Origin: Chiloscyllium plagiosum
Taxonomy: Eukaryota
Length of the DNA stretch: 64,000 nt
NCBI RefSeq assembly: GCF_004010195.1
Contig: NC_057715.1
Location: 63,906,563-63,970,562 of the forward strand
Direction of reading: 5' to 3'
Position 1 is the stretch's first letter; the number at the start of each line of letters is the position of its first letter. The notes beneath the pieces are model-generated. The model did no database searches. It saw nothing but the letters and a program-made list of their open reading frames with translations, and was not told the DNA's origin. Position numbers and translations under genes: made by a program. Positions 1 to 60,554 of the stretch are shown here, in pieces.

Positions 1-1389
1 TTTATCCTATTGGTGAGCTGTGGGGTGGGGTCAAACTCCCTCTTTTGGTAGGTGTTTGTATCTGCAAGTAGTTGTTGTGCTTTTTGGATGTAATCAGATT
101 TATCTAGGATGACCGTCATTCTGCCTTTATCTGCTGGTAGTATGATTATGTTCTTATCGTTTCTTAGTGATTTCAGTGCTTCCCTCTCCTTGGTGTTGAG
201 GTTATGTGTTTGTCTTTTCCTTGTTATCAGGGGTACGATACTTTGTCTCACTGTTTGTTGTGTCTCTTCTGTCAGTCCATTGTTCCTGAGTGTGCATTCT
301 AGTGCTGCTAGGAAGTCTGCTGTCTTGGCGTCCCTGTGGTTGTAGTTGAGTCCCTTGGCCAGTATTGTTCTTTCCGTGTCTGTGAGCTGTCTGTGGGAGA
401 GGTTTTTAACCCAGGTGTGTGTTGTGGTGTCCTCTTTGTTGTGTGTTAGTTTGGCCATTTTTTCGTTTAGTGCCGTTTTTTTGCGGTGTGTGGTCCTGTT
501 CTGTCCTATGGTGACAGCCTGTTCTATGGTCCGGGTCCATTCCTGATTCATGGTTTTTGAAATTAATGACTTTTGGTGCGCAATTTCTTGTCTGTATCTG
601 TGAAGTCGGTTGTGAGCGTCTGTAATCATTATCTGGATCATCCTGAGTCCATTCTGTCTGGCTGTGTCTCTGGCTTGTGGATTGTTGACTGGTGGTCTGT
701 ATCTGACACTTGGTGGAAGGATTTGATTCTTTCGGCATTGATGCAGGAACCGGAGTTGTTCGTATGTGGCGCTTAGGCGGTTAGCGCAGGATTCCCATTT
801 CCTGGCTTGTCGTAGCGACTCTCGCCCCTAGGTGTTCAAAGTTTGTGAGAAGATTTGTAGCTCGGGTGCTCGTTGCTATAGTTCTGTTTGCCGAGCTGGA
901 AGTTTTTATTGCAAACGTTTCATCCCCTGTTTAGGTGACATCCTCAGTGCTTGGGAGCCTCCTGTGAAGCGCTTCTGTGGTGTTTCCTCCGGCATTTATA
1001 GTGGCCTGTCCCTGCCGCTTCCGGTTGTCAGTTTCAGCTGTCCGCTGTAGTGGCCGGTATATTGGGTCCAGGTCGATGTGCTTGTTGATGGAGTTTGTGG
1101 ATGAGTGCCATGCTTCTATGAATTCCCTAGAAACCAGGGAATTCCTAGAAGCATGGCACTCATCCACAAACTCCATCAACAAACACATAGACCTGGACCC
1201 AACATACCAGCCACTACAGTGGACAGCTGAAACTGACAACCGGAAGCGGCAGGGACAGGCCACTATAAATGCCAGAGGAAACACCACAGAAGCGCTTCAC
1301 AGGAGGCTCCCAAGCACTGAGGATGTCACCTGGGCAGGGGACGAAACGTTTGCAACAAAAACTTCCAGCTCGGCGAACAGAACCACAGC
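1..1389 (-). mobile_element. Penelope-like element family A (Poseidon-like): ORF N-terminus plus inverted pLTR pair
   Basis: Minus-strand frame open from 827 to the window edge: FLHQCRKNQILP...KNLSHRQLT...LAKGLNY...EREALKSLRNDKNIIILPADKGRMTVILD (PLE DKG motif). Inverted arms of about 250 bp (~873-1127 and ~1137-1389) encode the GIY-YIG C-terminus REFLEAWHS. Confidence 0.9.
1314..1353 (+). ncRNA. Minimal type I hammerhead ribozyme motif (PLE family A)
   Basis: gca-CTGAGGA-t-[gtcacct gggc aggggac]-GAAACGTT-tgc: core boxes, stem II, palindromic ACGT stem III, gca/tgc stem I. Antisense twin at 911-950. Confidence 0.8.
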
Positions 1390-1992
1390 TGCCCTAAATC
1401 TATCATCCCGCAATTTAAAACTGTCTCCTCATGTTAGCCTTCACCATCCAAGGAAAAAAGCTTCACTGTCCACCCTTTCTAACTCTCATTATCTTATATG
1501 CCTCGATTACATCACCTCTCAACCTTCTTCTCTCCAATGAAAAGAGCCTCAGTTCCCTCAGCCTTTCCTTGTAAGACCTTCCTTCTATACCAGGCAACAT
1601 TCTAGTAAATCTCCTCTGAACCCTTTCCAAAGTTTCTATATACTTCCTATATTGCGGTGACCAGAACTGTACACAATACCCCATGTGCGGCCTTACCAGT
1701 GTCTTGTACAGCTGCGGCATGATCTCGTGGCTCTGAAACTCAATCCCCCTACCAATAAATGCCAACACACCATATGCCTTCTTAACAACCCTGTCAACCT
1801 GGATGGCAACTTTCAGGGATTTATGCACCTGATCTCTCTGTTCATCTACACTGCCAAGTATTTTACCATTAGCCCAGTACTGTGAATTCTTGTTACTTCT
1901 TTCAGAGTGAACTACCTCACACCTTTCCGCCTTAAACTCCATTTGCCACTTCTCAGTCCAGCTTTGCATCTTATCTATGTTCCTCTGTAACC
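1390..1992 (-). mobile_element. CR1/HER1 LINE ORF2 3' fragment
   Basis: WTEKWQMEF...LYKTLVRPHMGYCVQFWSP...LERVQRRFTRMLPG...LFSLERRRLRGD. Confidence 0.93.
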
Positions 1993-2446
1993 CTAGTCAA
2001 GTCAGCTTGATTAGAGTATCTTACCCCTTGCCAAAATCTATGAAGTTTCTCCAATATCTTGAAAAGGAAAGCATCACAATGTAATACCTGTTCTTAAGCT
2101 ACACCTCCATGGTTATGTCAGAAAAATAAGACCTGGTACAGCTGCTCCTCTGTATTTAGAATGTGTGTATGAATGAGAGAGGTGAGGATTTACCCTCCAT
2201 TTATTCTTATCTTTATATAGCAGATGTTATATAAATTTATATCCATTGAAGAACTTTGACTTTGGTGGGTAAAAGTAATAAGGTATTCCTGTAACTAGGT
2301 ATTTATTGCTATAGTGTATTGCTTGTATTCTTCTAGTACTAAGGTTTAATTTCAGCAGCCTTAGCCTGCTGCCTGCTCTAATACAGAATCCTTTGTTAGT
2401 TGATGAATTACTTGGGTATTCCAGTAATATTGTCATATCACTGCTG

Positions 2447-2463
2447 TGACGTCAGCATACGTG
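2447..2463 (+). promoter_or_regulatory. Candidate CRE (TGACGTCA) plus adjacent TACGTG bHLH-PAS/HRE-like site
   Basis: Motif match only; no functional evidence. Confidence 0.3.
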
Positions 2464-3219
2464 AGAATTAAAACAAACTTACCTTTTCAGACATGCTTAC
2501 ACAGCTAATTAGAATGAAAAATACACTGCAGTCAGCACTGAACATTTTTGTGTCTGTGTTAGATTGAAACCTGGTACGAAGACGTCCAATTTAGAGAGAA
2601 GATTCCTATACTCGGACAGCAATAGAAACCTAAGATCATTCTGTTTAGATGATGTAGAGGCACTTCCAAAACTGCACAAAGCAGACAGTAGCCATATTCA
2701 AATATGTTAACTTTTGTTTAGAATCCAACTGAAAATTAATCTATTCTCAAAATAATAGATGTGGGGTTTGCTTTGATTTGGACAAATACATCTACATGCA
2801 GCATGGTTAATGGCTTCTAAAATAGCTCATAGTGGCAATCTGTTTCCAACAAGGATGGGATGATTCCTCCTAAAAGAACACACTAATTTTCCACAGTTAG
2901 CACATAAAAGAAAATATTGTCTGTATAGAGAAAATTATGGATGATCGTTTTACTGATAGAATGTAAACCGCAAAAAGTCACAGTTCTTGCCTTGGTTTTT
3001 ATGGTTGAAACCAAGCCCTAGACTGATGACTGAATGCTACTTGGATTGCCTTTCTATCAGTCACTGGAAGCAGATATCTCCAGTTCAGGGTAACATCAAC
3101 ATTTCAAAGGACTTGTATGAGCAGGGGCTGGTCCTGTACTTTTTTCTTTAATGTATCTTTTATTCATATACCTTGTGTCCTATTTGATGTTGATTGTATT
3201 TTCTTATGTTTTAATTTAG

Positions 3220-3368: not shown

Positions 3369-4822
3369 GTAAGATAAGCTGAGGTGAATACTTAACACAT
3401 TTTAATACATTTTGAAGTCATCCCTTTTTTGCTAATTAATTGGGCACCATGTGTAATGTACACAATTTGTGGAGGTTACTGGGCCAGGTTGAATACTTGA
3501 ACTGAACTGAATTAACTGGCCCCCATGAAGTGAAACCCTACCTGGGTTGAATGTCTATTTCAACCCTGAATGATTGTTGTACACCTCTTATGAAAAGGCA
3601 CTAGCAAAGGATTTCCAGCATGTTGTTTGAAGCAAGAAGTCTTATTGTCTATTGAGAAAAGCCTTAAGCAAAAGAAAATAATATATTTTTAAAAATGAAA
3701 TTGAAGGAGGGGAAAATATTGGCCTGGAGTTTCGTTTAGTCTACATTTTATTGGGTGCAGTTCCTATGATATGGCCTAGCTAGCACAAAAGATTTCAGAA
3801 TTATAAGTTGCATTCTGCACAAGTTGAGTTTCCACAGTTTTTGGGTTACTAGAGGGAAGGCTCTAATCACAAAACTGGTTATATCCTAGGATGAATTAGT
3901 CACCATCTGGAGTTTCTCTTAATTGCACTTGTTTACAGGCCTCAAGGTACTGGTCCATTAATAGATGCATTTTAAAGGCTTTGAATGATTTTAATTTGAT
4001 AATATTTCTCTGGGACTGACTGCTAAACCCCAATCAAACTTGAAAAGGGCTTTGTCTATTTTTAAATAATGTTTTTAATAATGTAAAATAAGGTTATATA
4101 CAGGTGGTTGAAATGTTATTTTTGGTGATAAATCCAATTTCAACTGCCATTAATCAAAGCATTTGAAGTTACCAGTTTTTAAAAATATTTTCAGAAATAC
4201 TTCTTCAGCATTGTCCAATTTTATTTCCTCACTGCAAATGAATTCAAATGGAAACCTAGGGAGTGGGAATGTGCCAGAATGACCAATTACATCCTTTGTG
4301 GGATGTCTGCCACATTGTGTCTTTCAATCTATAAGTATAGTTGTTAGGCTTTTACATTAATTTAACATTTCCATTTTTTTTCTGTATCTAAATTTAACTG
4401 GTTAGTTAACTCTTAAAGGAGTACAGTACTACAGTTTCTATTAATATAAGTAATTAGAAAGGGTTTCATGAAATAGATTTAGATTTCAATTATGACTTGA
4501 GCACCCTGCATGACTCATTCAGTGAATGTTATGATCAAACAAGAAATGATTGACTGGTTACGTATCAGACCAAATGCGAAGAACTAGGAGGTAGTAGCTC
4601 TTTAATTGCATAGGCTATAGTTATCTACAAGACTGTGTATATTATTATTGGTATGGTTTTATGTGGCAATGATAAAGTGGATATTTACTTTAAAAAAGAT
4701 GAAATCTAAAGTGACTTAAAAAATACATTTCTCTTTACTATGAGCCAAATCATTCTAGTAATGGCCATCGCCAGTAGCCACTATTCCTTTCTCCTTTCCT
4801 TGCTCTGGACCTCTGCATTTCT

Positions 4823-5036
4823 GGGAGAAAGTGAGCACTGCAGATGCTGGAAATCAGAGTTGAGACTGTGGTGCTGGAAAAATGCAACAGGTCAAGCAGC
4901 ATCCAAGGAGCAGGAGAATTGATGTTTCGGGCATAAGCCCTTCACTTGGTGATGAAGGGCTTATGCTTAAAACATCGATTCTCCTGCTCCTTGGATGTTG
5001 CCCCACCTGCTGTGCTTTTCCAGCACCACACTCTCG
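4823..5036. mobile_element. Fold-back PLE family B insertion (older)
   Basis: Inverted arms centred near 4947; flanked by the short direct repeat gcatttct. Confidence 0.8.
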
Positions 5037-5586
5037 AGCCTGGCATTTCTAGCCCAGACCTCCAAACTGAAGTGCAAACATACTTGTTCTCGGAATCTTC
5101 CAGAACGGGATGGGTAATGGAGGCCAAGTCATGTTTTCATTTTACGGCACTAGCTGCTGTATTTGGGATTTAGAGATTTCAATGGCACATTGGCAAGCTA
5201 CAGAGAACAGATGTGTCTAAAATAATTGGGTGAGGGAGGAGGATGGCAAGTTTTTGAGGGGCTAAAGTGGCAAATTAGTTGGTGAGAGGGTACAATAAAG
5301 AGTGGATGAGGGGCTTGGTTGGTAGATAAGTGGATGAAGGACCTCAGTGAAAGGTGAGAGGAGAAGGTGTAGATTGACAGTAGATGAAAGAATAAGATCT
5401 CATGACTTCATTATTTGTCTTATAACACTGAGTTTATGCTAATTGCAAGGATTTTATGCTGCCCTGCTTTTGCTGAATGATATTTTTTTGTAATACACTT
5501 AAAATATAAGAAGCAAATAATACACTAGGGCAACGTTAATGAAATTGTTACCATAAAATACTAAAGCTGAACATATTACATTTTAG

Positions 5587-5678: not shown

Positions 5679-5832
5679 GTAACTAAGGAAAATTTACTTC
5701 AAGAATAGTACTGTATTAACTTGCTTCATGTATTTCTAACTAAACATTTGATTGAAGTGCTTAAGAATGCTTTAATTACAAATTTATCATTGGTGTGAGA
5801 ATCTCTCAAACCAATGAATGATACAAGTAAAA

Positions 5833-6055
5833 ACAGAAAGAGCTGCTGATGCTGTAAATCAGAAACAAAAGCAGAGATTGCTGGAAAAGCTCAGCAGGTC
5901 TGACAGCATATGTGAAAAGAAACCAAAGTTAACATTTCAGGTCTGGTGACCCTTCCCAGTTCTGAGGAAGGGTCACCGAACCTGAAATGTTAACATTGAC
6001 TTCTCTTCACAGATGCTGACAGACCTGCTGAGCTTTTCCAGCAATCTCTGTTTTT
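5833..6055. mobile_element. Fold-back PLE family D insertion
   Basis: Inverted arms centred near 5958; decayed hammerhead ctgagga-a-gggtc..aacct-gaaatgtt (5959-5994); flanking repeat acaagtaaa. Confidence 0.8.
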
Positions 6056-7242
6056 GAACAGCACAAGTAAATTGTTGAGACCAGAAGAGGTGCTTAGGAT
6101 TTCTCATCTACCCTCTTGCGGCTGTCTGGATTCAAGCTGAAATTACTGCAATATCCCATCATTCTGAGGATTGATATATGTTTGCATGACATTGTGCTGA
6201 CTGCTGCAAAATATAATCTGACAACAACAGAATTGATTGTGCATTTGATTTGGGATAAGGCCATCAGTTTACAACATGTCAGCTTAGACAATAATAAATT
6301 ACCAATTGAATATAATTTTGTTGAATGTGCAATTTTGAAAAGTTTTTGTTTAATAAGCAATTTCTTTACATTTTATGAATTGTATAATATCACTGTGGTC
6401 CTCAAGCCATATAAAGCTGAAGTTTCCTTTGGAGTTTGAGAACTTGATGTTGGGACCAAGTGAGAGTCCTGAACCTGTGGTCGCCAGCAATGTATCTGCC
6501 AATGCATCTTCCTGGAGTTAGTCTCCTAGTCTGTCTATTCATTCGCTGTCTTCTTAAGGACAGTGGGCTTTCGTTGCTGCAGTCCCAATTACAGGACAAC
6601 AGATCAGGAGCCACAACAACCCCACCAGGAGAAGTGGACATTGTAGAGGCAGAACAGACACCACGAATGCACCTCAGTATGGAAGTGCTTTCAGAGCCAT
6701 ACATAAAATGCAAAAATGGTGAGGGCTGAAGTTGGTATGCTCCCTCTTTTCTGATATTCCCCCGACACTCCCCCTGCCACTCCACACACAGCCAAGAGGA
6801 AACTCCTCACGATTAATAAAGTGGGCCTCAGATGCAGCTTTCCTAGCCATTGGTTCTGTCATTAGGGCATGGAGTCTCCAAGGCCCTCTTTATCACTCCA
6901 CACAAGCGGCATTGATTGAGCTGATGGCCTCCATGCAGCAAGATGCTGCTCCAGCATTGATAAGATACTGGCATCAAGGCAAAATTCAAGCTAATTGAGA
7001 GCTTAATCATTTAAATGCATTATTACTTCTTAGATGTGGACTGTCCACCTCATTCACTGCCCTACCCAGAAAAGATCTCTGATGGTGGAAATGTAAAAAG
7101 GACCTATCCCAAAAAGACTGTCCTTTATTTTCTGTGTACCTCACCCTCTACTCAACTTCTACCTACTTTCCCAATCTTTTCCAAACCCCTTACCCTCCAA
7201 CCCCCTTGGGCTAAAAGAATGCAGCCTTATATTTATGCACAG

Positions 7243-7463
7243 GGAGAAAGTGAGGACTGCAGATGCTGAAGATCAGAGCTGAAAAATGTGTTGCTGGAAA
7301 AGCGCAGCAGGTCAGGCAGCATCCAAGGAGCAGGAGAATCGACATTTCGGGCATAAGCCCTTCTTCAGGATTGCTGAAGAAGGGCTTATGCCTGAAGCGT
7401 TGATTCTCCTGCTCCTTGGATGCTGCCTGATCTGCTGCGCTTTTCCAGCAACACATTTTTCAG
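7243..7463. mobile_element. Fold-back PLE family B insertion
   Basis: Inverted arms meeting at ttcttcag-gattg-ctgaagaa; 17-bp TSD cttatatttatgcacag (7226-7242, 7464-7480). Confidence 0.9.
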
Positions 7464-7533
7464 CTTATATTTATGCACAGTCTGATATGTTGGAACCCAC
7501 TGATGGCTAATGTTATTATTCTATTCTTTCTAG

Positions 7534-7638
<105 letters not shown>

Positions 7639-7884
7639 TAAAACTAATAAGAATGTTTTAACTCAGGTGATTTTAATGAAACATATATGATTCTGAGGGG
7701 GCTTAAATTAGAGGCTGAGAGGGAAGTCCCCCTCATGGGAGAATCCAGAACTGGGAGGTGAGGGAAGGGGTGGGGTTCAAAATAAGGGGTCTACCATTTA
7801 AGGTTGAGGTGAGGACAAATTTTGTTAATGGTTCAACCATCTTTATCCACTACCTCCCTCGGTAAGTTAAACCACCCAGTCAAA

Positions 7885-8516
7885 GTTAAAATCACGCAAC
7901 ACCAGGTTATACTCCGACAGATTTATTTGGAATCACTACCTTTCGGAGCACTGCTGCTTCATCAGGTGGTTGTGGAGTATAACATCGTAGAATACAGAAT
8001 TTATAGCAAAAGTTTACAGTGTGATGTAGCTGAAATTATATAAAAAGAAAAAGACCTGGATTGTTTGTTAAGTCTCATGTTTAGATTGGGAATGTTGGTT
8101 TCAGTTCTTTCATATGTAAATTCCAGAACTTTCTTCAAGTTAAGTTCTCAAGTGAACTTTAACAATCGGTGCCATGTTGGCTCAAATAATACATTGAAGG
8201 TGTGCACTGCCCTTTGTGTGGCTTTTAAGTTCTTGAACTTACATGCAGAAGAACTGAAACCAATATGCTCATTCTAAAGATGAGAGACTTAACAAACAAT
8301 CCAGGTCTTTTTAGATATATTATTTTCGTTACATCACACTGTAAACCTTTGCTATAAATTCTGTGTCCTACGACCTTATCCTCCACAACCACCTGATGGA
8401 GGAGCATGCTCTGAAAGTTACTGCTTCCATATAAACTTGTTGGACTATAACCTGATGTTGTGTGATTTTTAACTTTGTACACCCCAGTCCAACATTGGCA
8501 CCTCCAAATCCTGACT
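7885..8516. mobile_element. Fold-back PLE family C insertion
   Basis: Inverted arms of about 250-330 bp with decayed hammerhead motifs; TSD acccagtcaaa (7874-7884, 8517-8527). Confidence 0.85.
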
Positions 8517-9759
8517 ACCCAGTCAAATTCACCATCAACTTAACACCTCAACTAAGAAATTTCCAATTATTAGAAGAACTTACTCAGCTTTAACCATATC
8601 ATGTACAATCAAAGAGATTTATAACAAGTCTCTTCTACTTTAAATTTATGCACAAAGTTTAAATCCACTTTAAAAAACAATTGCATTTCTACTCCGATTT
8701 AAAGAAAACTGTATTCTTAATCTCATATAGTTTCTTTAGATGTCTTTGTCTCAACTTTTCAAAAAGGGAAATTCTATTAGAACACAACTCTTTCATATCT
8801 TAAGATGACTACTCTGTGTGTACGTGTGTTGCCTTATAATTGTCTCTGTGACTGGGTAAATAGGCTTTCATTGTTTGTTATTTGTCCACATAATAAGTAA
8901 TATAATTTTGCTTACACTGTTTCTTTCATAAATTCTTATGGATCAATGAGTCATCCCTTCTGGCTTCTGTCACAGATGCTTGGCTACCCTCATGTTTTTC
9001 AACATTTCTTTTACTCGTTTCTTGGCACTTATTCAAATGCTGTGTATAATGCATTCTGTTTGTAATAATTTCTATTAACTTAATTAACAACTTAATTTTT
9101 GTCATTGAATTGGTCAATTCCTTTACATTTTCTTCCTTTAAGTGAACCATATTGTAATTCTGTCCCCCATTGAGCAGTGGAGGCTGGGTCATTGAGCTAT
9201 ATTCGAGGCCAAGCCAAATAGTTTGATTGACAGGGGATTGAAAGGATTTGGGGATAGAAAGAAAAATCATATCTAGTGCCTCAATCTGATCAGCCATGGT
9301 CTTTATGGATGGCAGAGGACAGTCAAGGACCTAATCTTGCTAGTAATTTGTATGTTCATTAAACAGATACTGCAGTAATTCAAAATTCAAATGTTGCAAT
9401 GTTCATTTTAAAATACACCAGCTTGACAATTTAAGAGAACAAAATATGAAAATGTGTCATTTTTATTTTTGTATCAGATTTTAAATGCAGAAATGATATC
9501 GCAACATGGGTTTCTCAGCTTACCAAGCATCCCTTCTCAGAATTCAGAGCATATATGTAATTCTTATTGCTTAGAAGTTTACAAGATCATTATTGATAAG
9601 TAATGCAAAATAAACAAATTCACAGCAATCTTAATAAATACACATAATGCCTTTCTAATAAAGATTTGGGCAAACATCCTGCTGGTTTCTGTTTGCTTTT
9701 ATAAACTAATTTCAAATTTGTGTGCTTGCTTTCAAAATTGAAGTAGTGACTGGTGATTT

Positions 9760-10735: not shown

Positions 10736-11254
10736 ACTTCTCAAACTCTACATCTCGGAATAAAGGAACATAAGGAGCAGGTGTTGGCCTTTCAGCTCCT
10801 TGAGCATGTCTTCTGCAATTCATCTTCAGTTCATTTACATGCCTTTGGCTCTTACCTCTTTTCATCCTTACACAAATCTAACAATCTCAGTATCGAAAGC
10901 TCAGTACTGTTGAATCTGTGCTACAGTCCCTTCAAGACCAGTTTATTGTTTCTGATGTGCAATATCGGAAACTAAACACAGCACCCCATTGCGATTCTGG
11001 CCAAAGTTCAATACAACCAAGGCACAATGTGCTGCCTGTAATATCATAAAATTAATGTAAATCATGATGTTGTGATTGATCACATGACTCTAATGTTAGT
11101 AAGAGAGAATAATCCAGTTTAAAACCTTTCTCTTCACTCAGCTCATTCTAGAGGTAACTTCAGAGAGTGGTGTTTGAGGACCCATTATATACAGATGTAC
11201 AAAGTTAAAAATCACACAACACCAGGTTAGAGTCAACAGGTTTAATTGGAAGCA

Positions 11255-11289
11255 CACTAACTTTCGGAGCGTCGCTCCTTCATCAGGTG
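11255..11289 (-). ncRNA. Minimal hammerhead motif (family C), antisense
   Basis: Reverse complement: cac-CTGATGA-a-[ggagc gac gctcc]-GAAAGTTA-gtg. Confidence 0.7.
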
Positions 11290-11309
11290 ATAGTGGAGGG
11301 CTCCTCTAC

Positions 11310-11344
11310 CACCTGATGAAGGAGCAACGCTCTGAAAGCTAGTG
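11310..11344 (+). ncRNA. Minimal hammerhead motif (family C), sense
   Basis: cac-CTGATGA-a-[ggagc aac gctct]-GAAAGCTA-gtg; palindromic AGCT stem III. Confidence 0.75.
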
Positions 11345-12308
11345 TGCTTCCAATTAAACCTGTTGGACTATAACCTGGTGTTGTGTGATTTTTAACTTGT
11401 ACACCCCAGTCCAACACCAACATCTCCAAATCACGACTATACAGATGTACATAGAGGACTGTTACAAAGTTAAAGACCCTTACTTAGAGATAAGGAATAA
11501 GAAGCCTCAGGCACAGTTACGTGCAGACAACCACAGCCCATGATAATCTATCTCAATGTGCAGATTCCAGTATTGACTTAAAGCATAAGATAAAAAAAGG
11601 TGGTAGTGAGGATAAGAGCCAGGATCTGAAGTTAAAACAGAGTCCAAGGAATACAGCTGAAGAGGGAAAATTAAAAGGCAGAAAAAAACCTCCGAGGACT
11701 TTGAATATGGGGCAGGAAGTTTCCAAAGGACAGGGAAAAGAAATTTGGATGACCGCAAAGAGAAGCAAGAAACTATAATATTGGGTAGAATCAAAACATA
11801 GAATCAGAAAACTTCAACAGTAAGAGGGGAAACTAGCTTACTCACCCAGATCAGCCAGGTACAATAATTCATGGGGATTGCAACTCTCGTACACACATGA
11901 CCATCATCTCAAACATTTGATAACCAGGAAGTCCCAAATGACACCAGACATAGGATCTGGGAAAAAAGACAGCTTCAGTGCTATAGAACAGCTTCAGACT
12001 TACATGCGCTTTCAAGTCAGCAGACTTTTATATGTCAAAGCTCCAACAGCAGATGTTCTGGTAACACAAAACATGAAAACGTATGACAGATTATGATGCA
12101 TTGATTGAAGCATCTTACACACAATTAGTATTAGTGCAATAGAAAGGGATGATATAAATTCAGGAAATCAGATGTAGAAGCGGTTTGGATAGAGGTGAGA
12201 AATGATAAAGACAAATCACTTGTGGGAAGAGTGTGCAAATCCCCTAACAGAAACCGTACAGTATATGTATATGAAGAAACAATGGAAGCTTGTCAAAAAG
12301 ACACAGTA

Positions 12309-12522
12309 AGCAAAAGTGAGGACTGCAGGTGCTGGAAATCAGAGTCTAGATTAGAATGGTGCTGGAAAAGGACAGCAAGTCAGGCAGCATCCAAGGAGTA
12401 GGAAAATCGACGTTTCGGGCAAAAGCCCAGTCCTGATGAAGGACTTTTGCCTGAAACGTCGATTTTATACTCCTCAGATGCTGCCTGACCTGCTGTGCTT
12501 TTCCAGCACCACTCTAATCTAG
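12309..12522. mobile_element. Fold-back PLE family B insertion inside a CR1 endonuclease fragment
   Basis: Inverted arms centred near 12431; TSD aaagac(a/g)cagta; host reads VEAVWIEVRNDK...VIMQDFNLH across the insertion. Confidence 0.85.
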
Positions 12523-13708
12523 AAAGACGCAGTAGTAATTATGCAGGATTTTAATCTACATGCTTGCTGCTAATTTGTATACTTGTATACTTAACTCCAA
12601 TAGACATTTATGGTATAATATGCAAGATTTAATCAGCAATTTTACCATTTCAGAAAAACAGTAGAAGCCTTTTTACTGGACTTAGATCATCTAGGAAAAT
12701 GTTATGGGCACAGAGCTTGGAGGATGAATCAGTTTGAGACAGTGCAGTAGCCAGTATGAGAGATGAGAAGTTATGAGATATTCCCCAATCCTAGGAGAAT
12801 TTAATGTTGGAACAGGAATCCAATTCGATACACTGACAGAAATCAGATCCATAATTAGTCAGTACTTGGGAAGACATTTGGGATTCTTCTGACGCAATGA
12901 AATGGAAAGGCACAATTGCAACTTTGTTACCCTCCCAGCCTTCCAAAATGTCAAAAGAAAAGAAATCATTGGGATTGACTACATGAGATTGTACAAGAAG
13001 TGGCTCCAAAAAAAAATCTCAATGTCAGCTGAAGAACAACTGAGGAGCTGAGTGCTATACCTGTAGCCAGTTGTGTTTCAATAATAATGAACATTAATAG
13101 CATCTCCATCACTTCAAAAATAAAGGAAGGCTCTTACAAAAGGAAACTTGCCAGAGAAATGAAAATCATACAAGAATAAGAAGTTTTAAATTTGCAAAGC
13201 AAAATGTGAAGACAGTATTTCTAAGGGATATCAAGAAGAACAGATTCTGGACTATTCCTGAAGGTACAAGGATTCAAACAAGAAGTGAAATTTGGCACAG
13301 GAATAACTTGTTAATGCTGAAAGACAGCTTGTTTTGAAGTCTGTGAAAGTCAGACCAGCTAACATAAAACTCCATGGTCCAGGAGGCACAGATTTTCATG
13401 TGCATGGGCAAATCGCCTCTAAGATTAGTCACAGAGAACAAAGTGTCACTGAAATACTAAATATAATGTGGAATCAGAATACATGTATTCATCTAGGTCA
13501 CTTATAGAAAGTAGTTACAATAACTCATAATGAAAATGGGAGAGAATTTCAGGAAAAGTTTCCAAAACTTTTTAAAGCTTTAAACAAACTGAAGTGGATG
13601 TAACAACTTACTCTGCTAAAAGGTACTAAACCGATCTGCATTTACATTCCCAGGAAAATTCCTCATCCTTTGGTGGGAAAAGTAAAATCTCAGTTAGACA
13701 GATTGAAA

Positions 13709-26185: not shown

Positions 26186-26434
26186 GTATCTTCTGCACTT
26201 GCAGAATCTCTAGAGTCTGCCTTTCTAGTGCGATATGATGTACTCAGGGTGGAACTAGTGATGTCTAGGATATTAGCTGTAAGATACAAATATGTCAAGT
26301 TGTTGCTTGACAGCTTTCCCAATTTTGGCATAAGATCTAGATCTTAGTAAAGGAGAAAGCCACAGGTCAACTGAGTTATCATTTCTGGTGCTGAGGTCAA
26401 TCTGGAAGTTCAGCTCAGCACTATTCTTTATTGA

Positions 26435-26631
26435 GGTAAAAACAATGACTGCAGATGCTGGAAACCAGATTCTGGATCAGTGGTGCTGGAAGAGCACAGC
26501 AATTCAGGCAGCATCCGAGGACAGGCAAAATCGACGTTTCGGGCAAAAGCCCTTTTGCCCGAAACGTCGATTTTGCCTGTCCTCGGATGCTGCCTGAATT
26601 GCTGTGCTCTTCCAGCACCACTGATCCAGAA
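26435..26631. mobile_element. Fold-back PLE family B variant with a perfect 80-bp stem
   Basis: 26470-26549 is the exact reverse complement of 26552-26631; 15-bp TSD actattctttattga (26420-26434, 26632-26646). Confidence 0.92.
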
Positions 26632-28377
26632 ACTATTCTTTATTGACTTTTCTGTGATGAATTGGCTTTTTCTCCAACTTTCCTTCCTTCCATTATGTCA
26701 TAGCTCCTGCTTTAAGTCCTGTTTCCTAACAGGGATTCATTAGGTGTGTGTTAATGGTAGAGTTGTGAATCCTACAGCATTTGGCTCATAGTACTGCACT
26801 GTCCCTGGCTGAGACTTGATGCTTTTCAATATTGCAGTACATGAGTAATAGAGATTGTGACTGAGAACAGCATGTTTACTATTAATATTTGCCTACAAAT
26901 TACTATGCCAATATAGGTGTATGCAGTATGGGTGTACTTTGGTTAATAATTTTTAAACAGACAGATGTTATGCATTAAGAAAATTTACTAACTTGACCTG
27001 GAAAAAAGTACTTGGCTAAGCAGTGTTGTGCCAAATAAAAGATTTGCTTGTTTTACTGGATTGTACAGAAAAGAAACGTAATCCTGATAAAATTCCACAT
27101 TCAGAATCCTGGAGAGATGCATATATTTAGATGTACATAAACCATGGAAACACTCATTGTCTGTCAGAGATACTTACTGAGAGCAGACTTTCAAAAAATG
27201 TGGTCATGTTCCAAATAGGTCAACGTCAGTGGTAGAAGATTTGAAATGTTGTTTTGAAAACTAAGCATAAAGGGAATATTGACATTGCAAATTGATACAC
27301 AAGGTGTAATATTCCAGGCTAGCAGGGGACATCTAGGAGGTGGGAGGCCTTGAAGATCAGTGGAATTGTTATCAGGACTGATAACCGACATCTTCCCATT
27401 TGTGTGCAGAAAGTTCAGGGTGGTACACGACTGACTTTTCCACTCACCTCCACTTAATACACTTGAATGGTCAATTAACAATATTTAAGATCCTTCCTAC
27501 CTGCATTGCAATTTTCCTTAGCTGCAGCCAGATAACTGACTGGCAGCCTACCAGCCATTAGGTCTCTGCAGACTGCATGTCAGGTGATGGGGTTGGCCTC
27601 AAGCTTCATTCAGTTCTACATGACTGAAGGCATGGACATGAGCAAGAACAAGTTGTTGACGACCTCCTTTCTCTGACTTCGATGGCCTCCCTGCCCCTGT
27701 GACCCTCACTACATGGGGTACACCCTTAAATAATAGTTATCTTTCTCATTGGTTCACTGCTTGATCCTGGGACTGTGAGGAGTTGCAGTACTGGCAGCAG
27801 CCACCACCTCTCCTGTGATGCTGCGGAGTGATAGATTTACTAGTCTCCAATTTGCAAACAATTGTCCTGCTCAAGTCTGTGTGCATTTAATGCAACCTCA
27901 ACTCAAAAATAAATTCTGTTTTAGAGAATTCATACACTTAAAATGATAAAACTTATTCTAGTTGGTGTAAGGAAGGGGATTCAATAACAAAATCCATTTG
28001 GAATTTGGGATGTATGACCAATTTGTAAAGCACTTTTAATTACAGATTCTTTCATTGCCTAATGTGCACTATGAATAATATGACCAGATGTAATTCAAAT
28101 TGATGATCATGTGTGTGCACCCGAACGCAGCCTAGTGTTACTTAACAATTGATAGATTATTTACCAAAATTTGTCAGCTTCATTGACCACTTTTAAAGAA
28201 ATGGAATCCTGGCAAAATTCCACAGTAAGGATCCTGTAGAAATGCATATATTTCGATGCATATATACAATAGAAACATTCATAATTAGTCTTTGTATAGA
28301 ATATGTTAATAGATTGCTTATTACAGACTGGTATAAACCACTGTTTGAAATGTTCTTTTTCTTCTTTCTAATTGTAG

Positions 28378-43609: not shown

Positions 43610-44722
43610 GTAGAGATTTGCTTAATGTAATCACTCAACATGCTGATAAATTATTGTTTTCAGAAAGCATTTAAGAAAGTACTGATAAGTAATGAAGTAA
43701 TCCATTGTCACCAGAAGCAATCATTTTAAAATGACCAAATTTAAATTGCTGGAGTGATAGAAGAATTTGCACAATTAGAGATGTTTTGCTGAATTCATGG
43801 TTAAAAGTGTATCCGAACCTTCATGGACTGAGAACTTTTTTTTTTGACATTATCTTTGGCGCCAGGAGAAGGACTGTTAGATTACACAAGAAAAGTTTAA
43901 ATATCTCTTTTTATTTGTTTGGCGAAAGCCTCCTACAAACTCCCACCTCATAATTTAGACAAATGAAACCAACTCCTTTTTTTTGCTACTTGCCAGTTAT
44001 CTCATGCCACTTGACATCTGTACTCCCACCCAGCAGATGCTACTGGATTTGGGCCGCCAACTAACACAGATGATGTCTGGAATTTAAAATGTCCCTGGCT
44101 ACATTCTGAAAAATAAGTGGAGTTTGCTGATCACCACTGCCTTCACCCACCTAATTCCCACCACAAGTTGAAATCAGGGCGTAATTTTAAAACTTTTCTC
44201 AGAGTATCTTTGGAACTTACTACTTCAAAAGGCAGTGGAAGCAAAGTCTTTCAATAGGCAGTGGAAGAAAAATTCATGATAAACAAGTGGGCAGAAGAGT
44301 ATTGGGATAGGTAGCAGTGTGAAGAAATCAGAGCAGCCATGATCATAGTGATTAATGCAAGAGGATTAAAGGCCAAGTGCCTCCAAATTCGCATATTTGC
44401 ATAGAAGTTCATACATATCGAATTACACAGGCACAATGTAATTACATAACGTGAAATAAAAATGATTGTGGTTTCAGAATAATGAGATTATAAAACTAAA
44501 CTGTTGTTATTTGAAAATAATGAATCTTTTATTTTCTGTATTAATTTCTGTTCCAGAAATCTTATATTTTTCTGTCAGTTCATAAATAATTATTTCAGAT
44601 TCATGACCTGCCAATTTACATTTTCCCATTGTTCCTGCAAACTACACACTGCGCTTGACACAAATTGGTTTCTATGGAAATTCTTCACTATACTGGATGA
44701 AATAGGTGAATGCTGTTATAGT

Positions 44723-45882
44723 CGAAAATGTGTTGCTGGAAAAGCGCAGCAGGTCAGGCAGCATCCAAGGAGCAGGGGAATCGACGTTTCGGGCATGAGC
44801 CCTTCTTCAGGAATGAGGAAAGTGTGTCCAGCAGGCTAAGATAAAAGGTAGGGAGGAGGGACTTGGGGGAGGGGCGTTGGAAATGCGATAGATGTTTCAG
44901 AGAATACCTCTGGGACACCCGGACCAACCAACCCAACCACCCCGTGGCTCAACACTTCAACTCCCCNNNNNNNNNNNNNNNNNNNNNNNNNNNNNNNNNN
45001 NNNNNNNNNNNNNNNNNNNNNNNNNNNNNNNNNNNNNNNNNNNNNNNNNNNNNNNNNNNNNNNNNNNNNNNNNNNNNNNNNNNNNNNNNNNNNNNNNNNN
45101 NNNNNNNNNNNNNNNNNNNNNNNNNNNNNNNNNNNNNNNNNNNNNNNNNNNNNNNNNNNNNNNNNNNNNNNNNNNNNNNNNNNNNNNNNNNNNNNNNNNN
45201 NNNNNNNNNNNNNNNNNNNNNNNNNNNNNNNNNNNNNNNNNNNNNNNNNNNNNNNNNNNNNNNNNNNNNNNNNNNNNNNNNNNNNNNNNNNNNNNNNNNN
45301 NNNNNNNNNNNNNNNNNNNNNNNNNNNNNNNNNNNNNNNNNNNNNNNNNNNNNNNNNNNNNNNNNNNNNNNNNNNNNNNNNNNNNNNNNNNNNNNNNNNN
45401 NNNNNNNNTGGTGGAAATGACGGCGGATGATACGTTGTATATGGAGGTTGGTAGGGTGGTAGGTGAGGACTAGTGGGGTTCTGTCCTGGTGGCGGTTGGA
45501 GGGGCGGGGCTCAAGGGCGGAGGAGCGGGAAGTGGAGGAGATGCGGTGGAGGGCATCGTCGATCACGTCTGGGGGAAATTGCGGTCTTTGAAGAAGGAGG
45601 CCCTCTGGGTGGTATGGTATTGGAACTGGTCCTCCTGGGAGCAGATGCGGCAGAGACAAAGTAATTGGGAATATGGGATGGCGTTTTTACAGGGGGCAGG
45701 GTGGGAGGAGGTGTAGTCTAGGTAGCTGTGGGAGTCGGTTGATTCGGTCGCCCGAGATAGAAATGGCTCATGCCCGAAACGTCGATTCTCCTGCTCCTTG
45801 GATGTTGCCTGACCTGCTGCGCTTTTCCAGCAACACATTTTCGGCTCTGATCTCCAGCATTTGCAGTCCTCACTTTCTCCTC
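44723..45882. mobile_element. Rearranged PLE family B element (Neptune-like) spanning an assembly gap
   Basis: Inverted family B ends. Minus-strand RT C-terminal YLDYTSSHP..CKNAIPYSQ..RICS and PLVLTYHP; plus-strand GIY-YIG-like FREYL...PVAQHFNS. TSD gaatgctgttat(a/c)gt (44708-44722, 45883-45897). Intact antisense hammerhead at 44779-44814. Confidence 0.85.
44967..45408. other. Assembly gap (442 N)
   Basis: Run of n characters. Confidence 1.
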
Positions 45883-45944
45883 GAATGCTGTTATCGTGGC
45901 TTGCTCTAGTCCAATTTGGTCATTTCTTGTTCAATTTTCTTTTC

Positions 45945-49650: not shown

Positions 49651-49654
49651 AAAC

Positions 49655-54512: not shown

Positions 54513-56470
54513 TTAGAATGTTTCCCTTTTACTTCTGGAAGAAAAGCTTTAATCATTAACCTCATTGGTTTCAGTGCCAATTTTCACTGATTGAGGCTTA
54601 ATAGCATAAAACAGACCTATGTTTCAGGGAAAGTTGGCAATCTCAGTAAATATAAGGCCAAGTTTGCAACTTGAAAGAAAAACATTCACTGTTGCACCAG
54701 AAGTGATTGTTGTGCCATTTCAGACATGATGCTGAGGAAAATAAAAGAGTGTTTTATGTTATATCTGATTGCTCTATCTGTCTTCTGTGAATGATTGATG
54801 CTGATATATTGACTAAAAAACGAAAGTAATTTTCTGTTACGTTAAGTCAATTATCAAATAATTGTGAAGGGAAAACATGAATTGAGTTTTACTTTTAGGA
54901 ACAAAGGAACAGTGAGACAGAATGCCTAGTCACCTTCTAATGCCATTGATTACAATAACTGATGGGTTCCAGGCATGTTCTATGTTGCCAGTGGGCAGCT
55001 CACAAATGCAAGGGATTGAAATCCAGTGATCTTGCTTCACAAGAGCTGCAACAGCTTTCAACTCAGGGAGCTTAAAGAGGGAGAAGTGTCTCTCCCTGCA
55101 ATCATTGCAAATGTTGGCAGAAAGATCTGTAACGTTGACCAGTGGAAATCAAAGCATTTATCACCACTATGCTGCGCCACATCAATTTTTGGGAACTCAA
55201 TAACAGGAGCAGGGATGCCAGGTTCCCACTGGCATTTACTTAGAGTGGGTGGGGAAAATGCAATCGGAATGTGGCAGACTTAGGTGTGGAATTGGAAATT
55301 GAGTTGACGTGGCAAAGAACTCAATATCTCTCTTCGTCTACAACCCTGACCACTTTCAGGCAGTGTAACAAAGGACCATCCAGGCTTCCATGTTTCTCCT
55401 GTTTTGCTAGTCAACAAAGAATTGTTCATTGTTAACATATAAAAAATGTCAATTGCTAACAGTGAAATGCTGTTTTTGGAATGCTGGTGGTACAGTGACA
55501 ATTCAATCAATATATTCTGGATATTTGTATTTAACTTTTCATTTCCTATCCTGAAGTTGTTGTGCCATTTTGTGTGAAGAACAATAATCTATACTGCCAC
55601 AAATCTGATATTCTATCAATTCTAATATAGTAAAAATTAATGTAGTATCGTGAATTAGGACACTTTGAGTTTTCTACAGCACTTATTATTTTACTACACC
55701 ATGCATCAAATAGTATAGTAGAGAAGAGGGGCAAGTTAAATAGTCAAAGCAGGCAAGAGCAAGACAGAAAATGAGGTTAGACTGATAAATTAAAATACAT
55801 TTATTTCAATGCACAAGACCTGCAAGGTAAGTTAGATGAACTTAGGGCATAATTGTAAACAAGAAACTAGGATATCATAGCTATCACAGAAATATGGCTC
55901 AGGGAGGGACAGGACTGGCAGCTTAATGTTCCAGGATATAGTTGTAATAAGAAGGATAGAAAGGGGGCAAGACAGGAGCGGGAGTTGCATTTTTGGTTAG
56001 GGATAACATTACAGCCGAATGTTATTCCTGCGAGAATGTCCAGTGTGTTAAGGGCTTGGATGGAGAGGAAGTTGTGTATGAAAATGTTTTTTTATTCTAT
56101 CCATGGATGTACCTACTAGAGAAGGAGCACTACTTGACCTTCTCCTGGGAAATAAGGCTAGACAAATAACTGAGGTGTCAGTGGGGAAGCATTTTGGGGC
56201 CACTGATCATAATTCTATTCATTTTAAAACAGTTATGGAAAATGATAGACCTGATCTAAAAGTTAAAGTTCTAAACTGGAGTAATGCCAATTTTGAAGGC
56301 ATTAGGCAGGAACTTTCAAAAGTTGTTTGGGAGAGGATACACCAAGGTGGTTGGAAAACTAGAGGCCTTCAAAAATTAGGTAACAAGAGTTCAGAGACAG
56401 TATGTTCCTGTTAGTGCAAAGGGCAAGGCTGGTAGGTGTAGGGAATGCTGGATGACTAGGAAAACTGAGG

Positions 56471-56689
56471 AGAAAATGTGTTGCTGGAAAAGCGCAGCAG
56501 GTCAGGCAGCATCCAAGGAACAGGAGAATCGACGTTTCGGGCATAAGCCCTTCTTCAGGAATGCCTGAAGAAGGGCTTATGCCTGAAACATCGATTCTCC
56601 TGTTCCTTGGATGCTGCCTGACCTGCTGCGCTTTTCCAGCAACACATTTTCAGCTCTGATCTCCAGCATCTGCAGCCCTCACTTTCTCT
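56471..56689. mobile_element. Fold-back PLE family B insertion nested in CR1
   Basis: Arms meet at ttcttcagg-aatg-cctgaagaa; 15-bp TSD ctaggaaaactgagg (56456-56470, 56690-56704). Confidence 0.92.
56527..56562 (-). ncRNA. Minimal hammerhead motif (family B), antisense, intact core
   Basis: Reverse complement: attc-CTGAAGA-a-[gggc ttat gccc]-GAAACGTC-gatt. Confidence 0.8.
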
Positions 56690-59049
56690 CTAGGAAAACT
56701 GAGGCTCTGGTCAAGAAAAAGGAGGCATATGATGGGATCGAGTGAATCCCTAGAGGAGTATAGGGGCAGTAGGAGTATACTTAAAAGGGAAATTCGGAGG
56801 GCAAAAAGGGAACATGAGATAGCTTTGGCAACAAGAGTTAAGGAGACTCCAAAGAGATTCTACAAATACTTTAAGGGGAAAAGAGTAACTGTGGAATGAA
56901 TAGGGGCCCTTAAAGATCAACAAGGCCATCTAAGTGTGGAACCACAGGAGATAGGTGAGATATTAAATTTATATTTTGCGTCAATATTTACTGTGGAGAA
57001 GGACATGGAAGCTAGAGAACTTGGGAGAGGTAAATAGCAAGGTCTTGAAAAGTGTCCATATTATGGCAGAGGAGGTATTGGATGTCTTAAAACACATAAA
57101 GATGGATAAATCCCCAGGACCTGATCAGGTGTACCTCAGAACTTTATTGGAAGTTCGAGAAGAGATTGCTGGGCCCCTTGCTGAGACATTTGTATCGTTG
57201 GTAACAACAGGTGAGGTGCTGGAAGACTGGATGTTAGCTAATATGCTGCCATTATCTAAGATAGGTGATAAGGAAAAGCCAGAGAACCATAGACCAGTGA
57301 GCCTGATGTCAATGGTGAGTAAGTTGTTGGAGGGGATTCTGTGGGATAGGATTTACATGCATTTGGAAAGACAGTGACTGATTAGAGATAGTCAATATGA
57401 CTTTGTGCGTGGGAAATTGTGTCTCACTAACTTGACTGAGTTTTTTGAAGAAGTAACAAAGAAGATTAATGAAGGTAGAATGGTAGTTGCTGTCTATATG
57501 AACTTCAGAAAGGCATTCGACTAGGTTCCACATGATAGGCTGGTTAGCAAGGTTAGATCGCATGGAATCCAGAGGGAGCCAGCCAATTAGATACAAAATT
57601 GGCTTGAAGGTAGGAGACAGTGGGTGGTGATGGAGTGTTTTTTTTCAGACTGGAGGCCTGTGACCAGTGATGTGTCACAAGGACCAGTGGTGGTCCTCTG
57701 CTTTCCGTCATTTAGATATGAGGTATGGAAGTAAGTTTGTAGATGACACCAAAATAAATCATGTAATGGATTGTGAAGATGTTTATCTCAGAGTACAATG
57801 GAACATTAATCAGATGGGCCAATGAGCTGAGGAGTGGCAGATGGAGTTTAATATAGATAAATGTGAGGTGCTGCATTTTGATAAGGCAAATCGGAACAGG
57901 ACTTATACAGTTAATGGTAGGGCCTTGGGAGTGTTGCGGAACAAAGAAACCTAAGGCTGCAGATGCATAGTTCCTTGAAAGTGGAGTTGCAGGTGGACAG
58001 GTTGGTAAGGAAAACAATTGGCACACTTGCCTTTATTGGTCAGCGCTTTGATTATAGCAGTTTGGAGGTCATGTTACGTCGGTACAGGACAGTGGGGAGG
58101 CTATAAGCTGGTGGTACAACGATAACATTTAAAAGGCATCTGAATGGGTATATGAACAGGAGGGGTTTAGAGGGATATGGGCCAAATGCTGGAAAATGGG
58201 ACTAGATTAGTTTTGGATATCTAGTCAGAATGGACGAGTTGAACCGAAGGGTCTGTTTCCATCCTGTATAACTCTATGACTCTATGAAGAATATATGAAC
58301 TGAATAAAGATTTCTGTATCAGCAGCCAACTGAAATTCATTCTGATATACTTGGAGACGGTTTCACTATAATCAAACTCGAAACACTGATTGTTTAAGTG
58401 ATTGGGCCAGAATTGTTTGTCAGAATTGTTGTGTAGTTAATGGTGGTCACTGTTATTTCTGCATAACTAGTGCAGCAACTTAGTAGAGAAGCAAATGTGC
58501 AGCTAGCTACAAATATTGAAAGGTGCCTTGTCACTATTAACTTTACAAAAACAATATTTCTGCCTCACTTTTGAAATGCATTGAAAATTGATGCAGTTGT
58601 TTTATTTGCAAATTAGGTACAAAATAAAGTTATTGCAAAGATTTTGGACCAGTAATTACAAATTAAAATATCCTTCTTGCCTAGACAAAATACAAGCGTG
58701 CAGCTTAATTTCTTCAAACTGTTGAAGATTTTAAAAATACCAAGTTTATTTTTTTCATTAGCTTTCCCTTTCTGTCTCTTTTTCTTTCTAAATCCAATTG
58801 TTTCCTTCCTTTCTTTAATCCTCTTTCTGTATCTGATTTGACATTGAGTTTGCCTGCACTAATTTACATTACTATCTCAGTCCTTGTGTCGTTTATTTCA
58901 CTACCTTTCATTTGGATTGATTGAGGACACACATTTCCATCTCCAGTTCACTTAATTCCCAAGTGCATATTGTTTTCCACTATGCTGCCATCAGCTTGCA
59001 CTTCCATCACTTGTGATGCAAAACCTAAATGCACACGAGATTGGAGACG

Positions 59050-59470
59050 TAATGCCGCCAAGACTGTGCCCACCAAGACTGAGCCTTTCCCAAGAGCCTA
59101 TAACAGATCTTTCTGCAGTGATGACGGACAAGGTGAGCTCCAGTTTTATTGGGTGGTCACCATGGCCCAGAATTTCTATGCACCTTACACAATCCAGGAT
59201 TCCATTGGAGGCATTTGTGGTATTTCCCAAACAGCCACACATTACTGCATCAGAGTGGTAGTGGAGTTCCTATTAAGAAAGGTCAGACAGTACATATACT
59301 GTCAAACTGCTGAATGGCCATCAAGCTGAGCGAACCTGAGGAATATGCATAATCGCTGGACTCCCCCAGATGCGAGATATCATGGGACATATGTTTGTGG
59401 CCATCAAGGTTTACGCAGAACAGCTAGGAGACTTCATTCACCAGAAGAAATTCCATTCCATCAGCATTTC
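59050..59470 (+). mobile_element. PIF/Harbinger transposase remnant
   Basis: VTMAQNFYA...IGGICGISQTATHYCIRVV and IAGLPQMRDIMGHMFVAIK...FIHQKKFHSISI resemble HARBI1-type motifs; frameshifted, catalytic D lost. Confidence 0.7.
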
Positions 59471-60268
59471 AATTGCTTTGCACCATTGGCACTTATGTGC
59501 TCATTATCCTTGCGACTTGCACCTACACACAGGCACTCCCACTTATTTCCAGAAATGCTATAAGGCAGCTCAAATTTAATTCAGCAGTCAGGTTCAGATT
59601 TAAGTTCCTTGTAGAAGGTTCATGTTTAATGTCTACTTTATCTGTTTATAATGAAGGTTTTAAAGAGAATTTTAATTAAGGAGAGACTACAAGAAAAATT
59701 CCACGGAGCAATGTGAATTAATGCCATGTGAATTCCATAACATATTTTTATTGTAATGTGCTAAAAGCACCCTGCACCAGAAAAACAGAACTTGCAAAGT
59801 GAGAATTGGAAAGCTGCCGTAACAATTGCAGCTGATGTTTTGCGAAGGCTGGGCCAAGGATGCCTATGAATAGATTTGTAAGTCAGTCTATTTCTGACAT
59901 GAAATCCTGGAAGAAAAATCTGCATTCTACAAATGTTACCTCAGCTGCATTATTATGTTAAGATGGGGTTCTCACTGTTTCTGAAAGTAACTTTCTGAGA
60001 CAGATGTTTTGTCCATTGATGTAGATTGTGTAAATAATTTTCATCCATGATTCTGGTCAACAACTACTATTTATGGGGCATAACCAATGTGATCATTTAT
60101 CTACTGCAACATGGTGATATAACATCCTTTAAAAATAAACTGCACTCTGAATGGGGCTTAACTTCAGACTTAGATATATCATATTCACATTAAGGTTACC
60201 AGTCTCATAAATGTAATCCTCTGACATCTGTAGACTTGCAGGGAATACTTTAGAAAGTAGGTATGCAG

Positions 60269-60413
60269 GGAGAAAGCGAGGACTGCAGATGCTGGAGATC
60301 AGAGCTGAAAATGTGTTGCTGGAAAAGCGCAGCAGGTCAGGCAGCATCCAAGGAGCAGGAGAATCGACGTTTCGGGCATGAGCCCTTCTTCAGGAAGAAG
60401 GGCTCATGCCCAA
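60269..60413. mobile_element. Asymmetric fold-back PLE family B insertion
   Basis: Long minus arm with intact hammerhead core (60366-60393) plus an 18-nt inverted stub gaagaagggctcatgccc; 15-bp TSD aaagtaggtatgcag (60254-60268, 60414-60428). Confidence 0.9.
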
Positions 60414-60554
60414 AAAGTAGGTATGCAGCACATATATTGCTTTTAAGCACAATTCATTGATCAGTTGTGATAGATATTATATACAAGCTGGATTGTAGTA
60501 AATGCTAATGTGAAAATGTGAGTTTTTTTCATGGTTTGCATTTTTCTTTTTAAG

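Follow-up and report, generated by a model that had tools for sequence, protein, structure and literature searches.

Penelope-like elements that carry an endonuclease (EN+) have been described as units in which an inverted, 5'-truncated arm stands head to head with the element and a single target-site duplication (TSD) encloses the whole (Pen2a_Av, PMC3846280; PMC8557442; D. virilis, PMC2377424). According to the accessible text of PMC3846280, Pen2a_Av exhibits an inverted pseudo-long terminal repeat (pLTR), a 31-bp tail and TSDs of 8-10 bp, and antisense self-priming was proposed. This layout is treated as general for the class in PMC8557442, the available part of which leaves its origin undefined and names the tandem and inverted structures as unresolved. 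The Penelope element of D. virilis has an internal promoter and frequent inverted repeats (PMC2377424), and very short insertions, with a median of 128 bp, are reported from Chlamys (PMC9977147). The Poseidon protein of Anolis carolinensis, a predicted dimer, was found in vitro to cut and extend both DNA strands and to begin reverse transcription at two sites bounding the tail (PMC11167929). Here we analysed a stretch of 64,000 nucleotides of Chiloscyllium plagiosum (GCF_004010195.1, contig NC_057715.1, positions 63,906,563 to 63,970,562, hereafter the window) together with a sample of the genome, and found that short head-to-head hairpins are the commonest TSD-verified short insertion product of its Penelope-like elements, that these hairpins were probably formed at the insertion site, and that priming from both strands of a staggered cut is the best-supported model of their origin.

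Using self-BLAST and a repeat finder, a local inverted repeat was located at each of the 12 positions listed in the original prediction, which had counted about 11 insertions. Ten of these are stand-alone hairpins (Table 1) with TSDs of 9-17 bp, a slightly wider range than the 10-17 bp first given. A single TSD encloses both arms, which upholds the proposal of one insertion event per hairpin. The TSD of the hairpin at 4823, 10 bp with one mismatch, falls under the score cut-off of our analysis. The remaining two sites had been taken for short hairpins and are something else. At 873-1389, an inverted and a direct pLTR form the 5' end of a long element, which spans ~3.2 kb including a 1.5-kb N gap and is flanked by a 13-bp TSD whose partner copy lies ~1.83 kb left of the window; its continuation in the neighbouring stretch (L277) comprises the N gap, the 3' pLTR and the TSD partner. 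This element corresponds to the published EN+ unit at full length. The site at 44723 is a 1.16-kb complex insertion with pieces of the open reading frame (ORF) around a 442-N gap. The tail is confined to one arm, as predicted; the accompanying rule that the short arm lacks the last 30-40 nt fails at 60269, where ~98 nt are missing. In the C hairpin at 7885 the tail-less arm extends further upstream than the tailed arm, and in the A hairpin at 32829 it includes 120 nt more of the ORF end, with a 2-nt microhomology at the centre. The arms of the B2 hairpin at 26435 are 99% complementary and meet at a 3-nt central microhomology.

L1 twin priming is a familiar process in which the element RNA is primed from two 3' ends of the target, leaving a 5' inversion within one TSD, and in which the arms cover different parts of the RNA. 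The original prediction set the hairpins apart from it, and rightly so: here one and the same element segment is present in both arms, and it is the element that sets the second start. Compared with the published EN+ unit, the one-sided tail is similar (31 bp in Pen2a_Av, ~36 here), an ORF between the arms is missing from most TSD-verified insertions, and the TSDs are longer (median 14 bp as called, against 8-10 bp in the rotifer examples; PMC3846280). The hairpins also resemble the non-LTR retrozymes outlined in bioRxiv 10.64898/2026.07.22.740005 in being short, non-coding, derived from pLTRs and equipped with a type-I hammerhead motif; those are described as head-to-tail tandems, whereas the present ones are head to head and made once per site. 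A possible head-to-tail, retrozyme-like array was seen elsewhere (G000:C13:66598689-66599992), with five matches to the pLTR-ORF junction, four of them spaced ~250-260 bp.

The Penelope-like origin assigned at the outset was supported. Judged by their sequence, the hairpins are 5'-truncated members of this known class in its published layout, belonging to three lineages (A; B/B2/D; C). Four dissimilar families had been distinguished, but B, its variant B2 (26435) and D align at 73-81% identity and are thus mutually homologous. The one-sided tail of 30-40 bp, the inverted pLTR and the TSD that mark EN+ elements were all found. A pLTR that overlaps the ORF start and is repeated at the 3' end is seen in the 873 element, and B2 pLTR-ORF junctions are present in L127 and L278-L290. 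One B copy (L202) holds a single 416-aa frame with candidate RVT_1 (E 0.008) and GIY-YIG (E 2.6e-4) matches, weak scores that lie below the Pfam cut-offs but stand in the order reverse transcriptase (RT) then GIY-YIG. A C copy (L263) gave a weak RVT_1 match in Pfam (E 0.001), and the family-A pieces had no relevant Pfam match, a GIY-YIG-like motif being visible by eye only. From motif resemblance A is putatively assigned to the Poseidon clade, and B, D and C putatively to the Neptune clade. The A arms include the ORF end, so the description of the hairpins as mostly non-coding does not extend to every one of them. In the B lineage the reading frame begins inside helix II of the hammerhead, a feature shared with Poseidon (PMC11167929). 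The frame read from that point has a hydrophobic, cysteine-rich N-terminus that looks like a signal peptide by eye.

The abundance of these insertions was assessed in a grid of 160 stretches of 10 kb, placed at fixed positions on 40 large contigs (1.6 Mb, or 1.54 Mb without N). The grid contains 59.6 kb of N, and many of the gaps fall inside these elements. The families described here account for 115 of the 165 local inverted repeats. Among 197 tail-bearing ends, 11 adjoined N and were removed; 101 of the 186 analysed have an upstream inverted arm. Enrichment of TSDs, which had been suggested as a check, was clear: a score of at least 9 was reached at 85 of the 186 ends and at 5 of 556 shuffled flank pairs. 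These 85 insertions comprise 58 simple hairpins, five whose inverted arm is short or irregular, 14 solo arms and eight complex cases. A TSD was also present at 13 of 118 unpaired tail-less arms, and simple hairpins make up 58 of 98 verified insertions once these solos are counted. The hairpin is therefore the commonest verified short product, in line with the dominance originally claimed, long insertions being under-sampled in the grid because of the gaps and the edges of the 10-kb stretches. The median insert of the hairpins is 210 bp, and their density is ~66 per Mb, with an extrapolated ~2.3e5 copies per genome. Neighbouring arms on opposite strands are head to head in 118 cases and tail to tail in five. 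The window is richer than the grid, with 10 such tailed ends against a mean of 4.0 per 64 kb (~2.5-fold; resampling P=0.0045). No target motif was established beyond AT-richness (65% AT).

Comparison of the arms indicates a common source. No hairpin of mixed subfamily was found among 51 confidently assigned (of 69), and alleles at three non-CpG sites are concordant between arms in 80 of 81 comparisons, against 62% when permuted. Rare alleles are common to both arms in only 8 of 83 cases, which argues against wholesale conversion, and the arms of young B hairpins diverge by 4%, each with its own mutations. The original prediction had asked whether identical junctions recur. In the grid, 56 of 58 junctions are distinct; each of the two recurrent pairs lies on a 3-nt microhomology, and its members are distinguished by diagnostic sites and by their tail-less ends. 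In a strict parse of young copies (52 of 56, four skipped, including targeted loci chosen for a long tailed arm), five end-pairs recur, and one microhomology pair serves both junctions with a longer tailed arm and junctions with a longer tail-less arm. The hairpins were thus probably formed at the insertion site.

The outer ends follow a strict rule. Among the 118 head-to-head pairs in the grid, 86 could be classified, and 82 of these combine one tailed with one tail-less arm, none has two tails, and four have none, whereas 42.9, 19.5 and 23.5 (mixed, tail-tail and tail-less pairs) would be expected under independent choice (P=3e-17); the four tail-less pairs are old and have no TSD. The tail-less arm of B ends ~36 nt inside the tail end (33-38 nt in 19 of 22 copies). 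Overlaps between the short arm and the TSD, noted earlier, were confirmed at 11202 (6 nt) and 7885 (4 nt), but they are not special to the short arm. Of 37 B hairpins, 27 tail-less ends and 24 tail ends could be anchored. A microhomology of at least 1 nt occurs at 22 of the 27 tail-less ends, and at 17 of the 24 tail ends (P=0.005) if the 3 nt beyond the B tail are as we infer them, since the natural copy supplied no sequence there. The null fraction for both is 0.425, from a null that allows for TSD over-calling and replaced a first permutation null that was too lenient. That microhomology is raised on both outer sides suggests that each end was primed by the target.

The inner ends are variable. 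In the 58 grid hairpins the tail-less arm is the longer at the centre in 33, the tailed arm in 11, and the two are within 3 nt in 14; the strict set gives 21, 18 and 13 (similar). As the tail-less arm is often longer, a single fold-back from the tailed cDNA is excluded for most hairpins. Insertions are found at 26 of the 52 centres of the strict set. Among the 26 insertion-free centres, 14 have at least 2 nt of microhomology (~0.13 expected; P=8e-7) and six have none. Central insertions of at least 5 nt match nearby sequence better than shuffles in 5 of 10 cases (P<=0.02). We take this combination of microhomology and local-copy insertions to resemble polymerase-theta joining. For B, D and C, most inner ends (82 of 128) fall between -10 and +12 relative to the CUGA core of the hammerhead, with five in the next 23 nt, a pile-up that possibly marks the RNA 5' end. 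None of 10 ORF-continuing B2 copies (of 13, the rest being limited by N) extends more than 130 nt from the tail end, nor does L127; this boundary fits an RNA 5' end, but only two copies reach that point and an RT block is compatible with it. Family A has no pile-up at the hammerhead, with 1 of 31 tail-less arms ending 115-127 nt from the tail end, and shows clusters at 188-190 nt (5 of 31) and 298-310 nt (5 of 31). The latter cluster, near the 5' end of the long copy, weakly backs the reading as an RNA 5' end.

As originally proposed, it is probable that each strand of a staggered cut primes its own cDNA and that the two cDNAs are then joined head to head. The endonuclease would nick both strands ~12-15 nt apart, which would provide two 3' ends, and one complex would begin a cDNA at each of two initiation sites of the element, ~36 nt apart, with 1-3 nt of primer pairing with the template. 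The two cDNAs would be copied from the same RNA segment, either on one RNA with displacement or on a pair of sister RNAs. Most of those of the B and C lineages would end at the 5' edge of the hammerhead, which is possibly the 5' end of the RNA. The free cDNA ends may then anneal in trans and be filled in, probably by microhomology-mediated end joining of the host. Loss of one cDNA would leave a solo arm, and the TSD-flanked solos, 14 tailed and 13 tail-less, were counted in favour of double priming; a long cDNA on one side would yield the textbook element with its 5' inverted pLTR. A more specific version can be put forward only tentatively: a dimer, acting on one RNA, would use both nicks as primers in two registers separated by ~36 nt; its two RTs would each transcribe the identical segment until they reach the mRNA 5' end, immediately upstream of the hammerhead, in the manner of strong-stop synthesis, and joining of the polymerase-theta type would fuse the cDNAs. 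If true, the inverted pLTR, the tail and the stumps would all result, throughout the class, from one cycle of double priming, of which the genome copies are the fossil read-out.

The closest competitor, which we consider unlikely, retains double priming but dispenses with a long overlap: the longer of the two cDNAs folds back on itself in cis (snap-back) and is self-copied, after which the sense strand so made pairs with the shorter cDNA from the other nick. The final product is the same as under joining in trans. Strict pairing of tailed and tail-less arms, allele concordance and central microhomology are equally explained by it, some central insertions resemble repeated local re-priming, and 17 of the 26 insertion-free junctions are compatible with snap-back of the longer cDNA. 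The excess of longer tail-less arms in the grid also fits it, although that bias vanishes in the strict set. Nine of the 26 insertion-free centres imply a loop of less than 3 nt (1-2 nt), which makes snap-back in cis awkward, and the six without microhomology, together with the pair of microhomologies that serves with either arm longer, argue against it as well.

Besides these observations, several others weigh against joined double priming as set out above. All steps are read from fixed insertions, and no intermediate was observed. The data fit one RNA or two sister RNAs alike, and a pile-up at the 5' edge of the hammerhead would look identical under an RT block. Outer microhomology is not significant in A, C and B2 (n=7 each), and the targeted loci include two tail/tail pairs among 52, neither with a TSD. 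For the anole protein, the accessible text of PMC11167929 describes no difference between strands in the RT start site and no homology of that site to the cut DNA, so the in vitro reaction shows neither strict pairing nor primer pairing of 1-3 nt. That system resembles the present one in that both strands are cut and extended and two internal RT starts bound the tail, which speaks for double priming; it differs in that the available part of PMC11167929 leaves the inverted pLTRs unexplained and describes no strand difference, whereas the genome copies here show strict pairing and 1-3 nt matches.

Antisense-RNA self-priming would produce a hairpin intermediate, resolved into the target by the endonuclease with the tail left on one side (PMC3846280; tail from resolution, PMC8557442). 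It is already in print for head-to-head junctions with palindromes (PMC3846280), and arms of the same source are predicted by it. We regard it as improbable here: it requires antisense transcripts with variable 3' ends and would yield a paired junction that belongs to one arm, whereas half of the centres have insertions and either arm may be the longer, and the raised microhomology at both outer ends points to target priming. Moreover, later in vitro work links the tail to two RT starts on sense RNA (PMC11167929).

A hairpin that is itself mobile and non-autonomous, either like a miniature inverted-repeat transposable element (MITE) or copied whole through RNA, would account for the very high copy number and for the few recurrent junctions, and rare whole-hairpin copies may be compatible with a 1.6-Mb sample. 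As a general explanation it is very improbable, given the distinct junctions, the differences within the recurrent grid pairs, and ends that are asymmetric rather than uniform. An A>G scar on one strand, as left by ADAR, was absent overall (56 A>G against 50 T>C in 95 hairpins), which also speaks against it. One C hairpin (L117), with seven T>C and one A>G, has the largest strand skew of the 95, possibly through editing or chance.

Contigs from independent runs were also compared with the window. Runs X1 (organism A) and X10 (organism B) contain contigs that lead from flank into arm on either outer side of the 7243 hairpin, and run X14 (organism C) has such contigs for both ends of the 4823 and 7885 hairpins. 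In window 4500-9700, none of the contigs spanned the centre of a hairpin with 31 letters to either side, and no empty orthologous site was present among the matches listed for four runs, where repeat contigs dominate, so that this is no proof of absence. An assembly artefact or two independent adjacent insertions, to which the N gaps inside the elements and the unbridged centres might point, can hardly be credited in view of the single TSD around both arms, the independent mutations of the young B arms, the prevalence of head-to-head pairs and the flank-into-arm contigs of three runs.

A minimal type-I hammerhead motif was present in all six reference sequences, 115-133 nt from the tail end. 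Its helix III is palindromic in five of the six, and the C majority has AAAA in place of GAAA. Minimal type-I hammerheads with an extra base before helix II and a palindromic helix III are described in PMC4209133. The hairpins had been called ribozyme-bearing, and 38 of 58 do carry the entire motif on one arm or both; for transcripts of a whole hairpin, structure prediction gives a single long duplex instead of a hammerhead. The Rfam search returned no hammerhead, only sub-threshold microRNA (miRNA) matches owing to the hairpin structure. Hammerhead cleavage was considered as the source of the inner ends and rejected, as only 3 of 128 lie within 1 nt of the predicted cut; cleavage is likewise reported as dispensable for Poseidon (PMC11167929). 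At 20-30 nt upstream of the core of the hammerhead, the B, Bo and B2 references have a pyrimidine tract ending in AG, similar to a splice acceptor. An intron in D. virilis has its end at helix I of the hammerhead (PMC4209133). The tract in B does not coincide with the inner-end pile-up.

The layout of these insertions is already published; the short form as dominant product was not found in print. Neither stand-alone Penelope hairpins as a majority product nor the double-priming model was found in the titles and abstracts covered, subscription journals and Repbase reports lying outside that coverage. The only mechanistic proposal found, antisense self-priming (PMC3846280), is older than the in vitro data. 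The stumps record how a poorly understood class integrates, and their counts separate the models through strict pairing of tailed and tail-less arms, independent inner ends and end-joining scars. Palindromes at this density can be mistaken for MITEs or for miRNA precursors, and intronic ones are predicted to give rise to double-stranded RNA.

Table 1. Penelope-like insertions and related features in the window.
Feature	Position	Strand or arms	Remarks
ORF N-terminal part, long family-A Penelope-like element	1..832	-	275-aa open frame 3-827; exits window leftwards
Direct 5' pLTR with tail, long family-A element	833..1128	-	begins 296 nt from tail end
Inverted tail-less pLTR, long family-A element	1134..1388	+	right TSD copy 1389-1401
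Old B-lineage hairpin	4815..5052	tailed arm 4824-4944 (-), tail-less arm 4950-5037 (+)	TSD 4815-4824 / 5043-5052
D hairpin, old relative of B	5823..6071	tailed arm 5828-5965 (-), tail-less arm to 6056 (+)	9-bp TSD
Young B hairpin	7226..7480	tailed arm 7243-7373 (-), tail-less arm 7370-7465 (+)	17-bp TSD
C hairpin	7874..8527	tail-less arm 7881-8218 (-), tailed arm 8249-8510 (+)	11-bp TSD
C hairpin	11188..11451	tail-less arm 11196-11298 (-), tailed arm 11301-11433 (+)	14-bp TSD
Older B-lineage hairpin	12297..12534	tailed arm 12313-12428 (-), tail-less arm 12431-12524 (+)	12-bp TSD, 1 mismatch
B2 hairpin (B variant)	26420..26646	tailed arm 26435-26554 (-), tail-less arm 26552-26634 (+)	15-bp TSD
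A hairpin	32819..33382	tail-less arm 32830-33144 (-), tailed arm 33143-33372 (+)	10-bp TSD
Complex B insertion	44708..45897	tail-less arm (-), endonuclease fragment (+), N gap, RT-thumb fragment (-), tailed arm 45762-45880 (+)	15-bp TSD, 1 mismatch
Young B hairpin	56456..56704	tail-less arm to 56563 (-), tailed arm 56561-56688 (+)	15-bp TSD
Minimal type-I hammerhead motif (example, predicted), inner end of arm	56564..56595	+	CUGANGA, extra base, helix II, GAAA, palindromic helix III
Young B hairpin, 25-nt inverted arm	60254..60428	tailed arm 60269-60396 (-)	15-bp TSD

Some further features of the window were noted. A solo tail-less D arm at 32266-32356 is flanked by 14-bp direct repeats with one mismatch and has ~20 unexplained bases at its 5' side. 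Unpaired pieces of the same families, for which no TSD was established, lie at 10191-10727, 13723-13798, 17635-17726 and 51555-51592, and a weak inverted repeat at 49569-50663 belongs to a different repeat family. In run X10 one contig skips window positions 5371-5508, and runs X1, X7 and X14 have 19 additional bases after position 8988. An exon of a CLOCK/NPAS2-type bHLH-PAS gene was identified at 3221-3367 (best PDB match CLOCK bHLH, E 1e-21), and a PAS-like exon of such a gene was recognised from its translation at ~7536-7625; the hairpins at 4823, 5833 and 7243 sit between these two exons.

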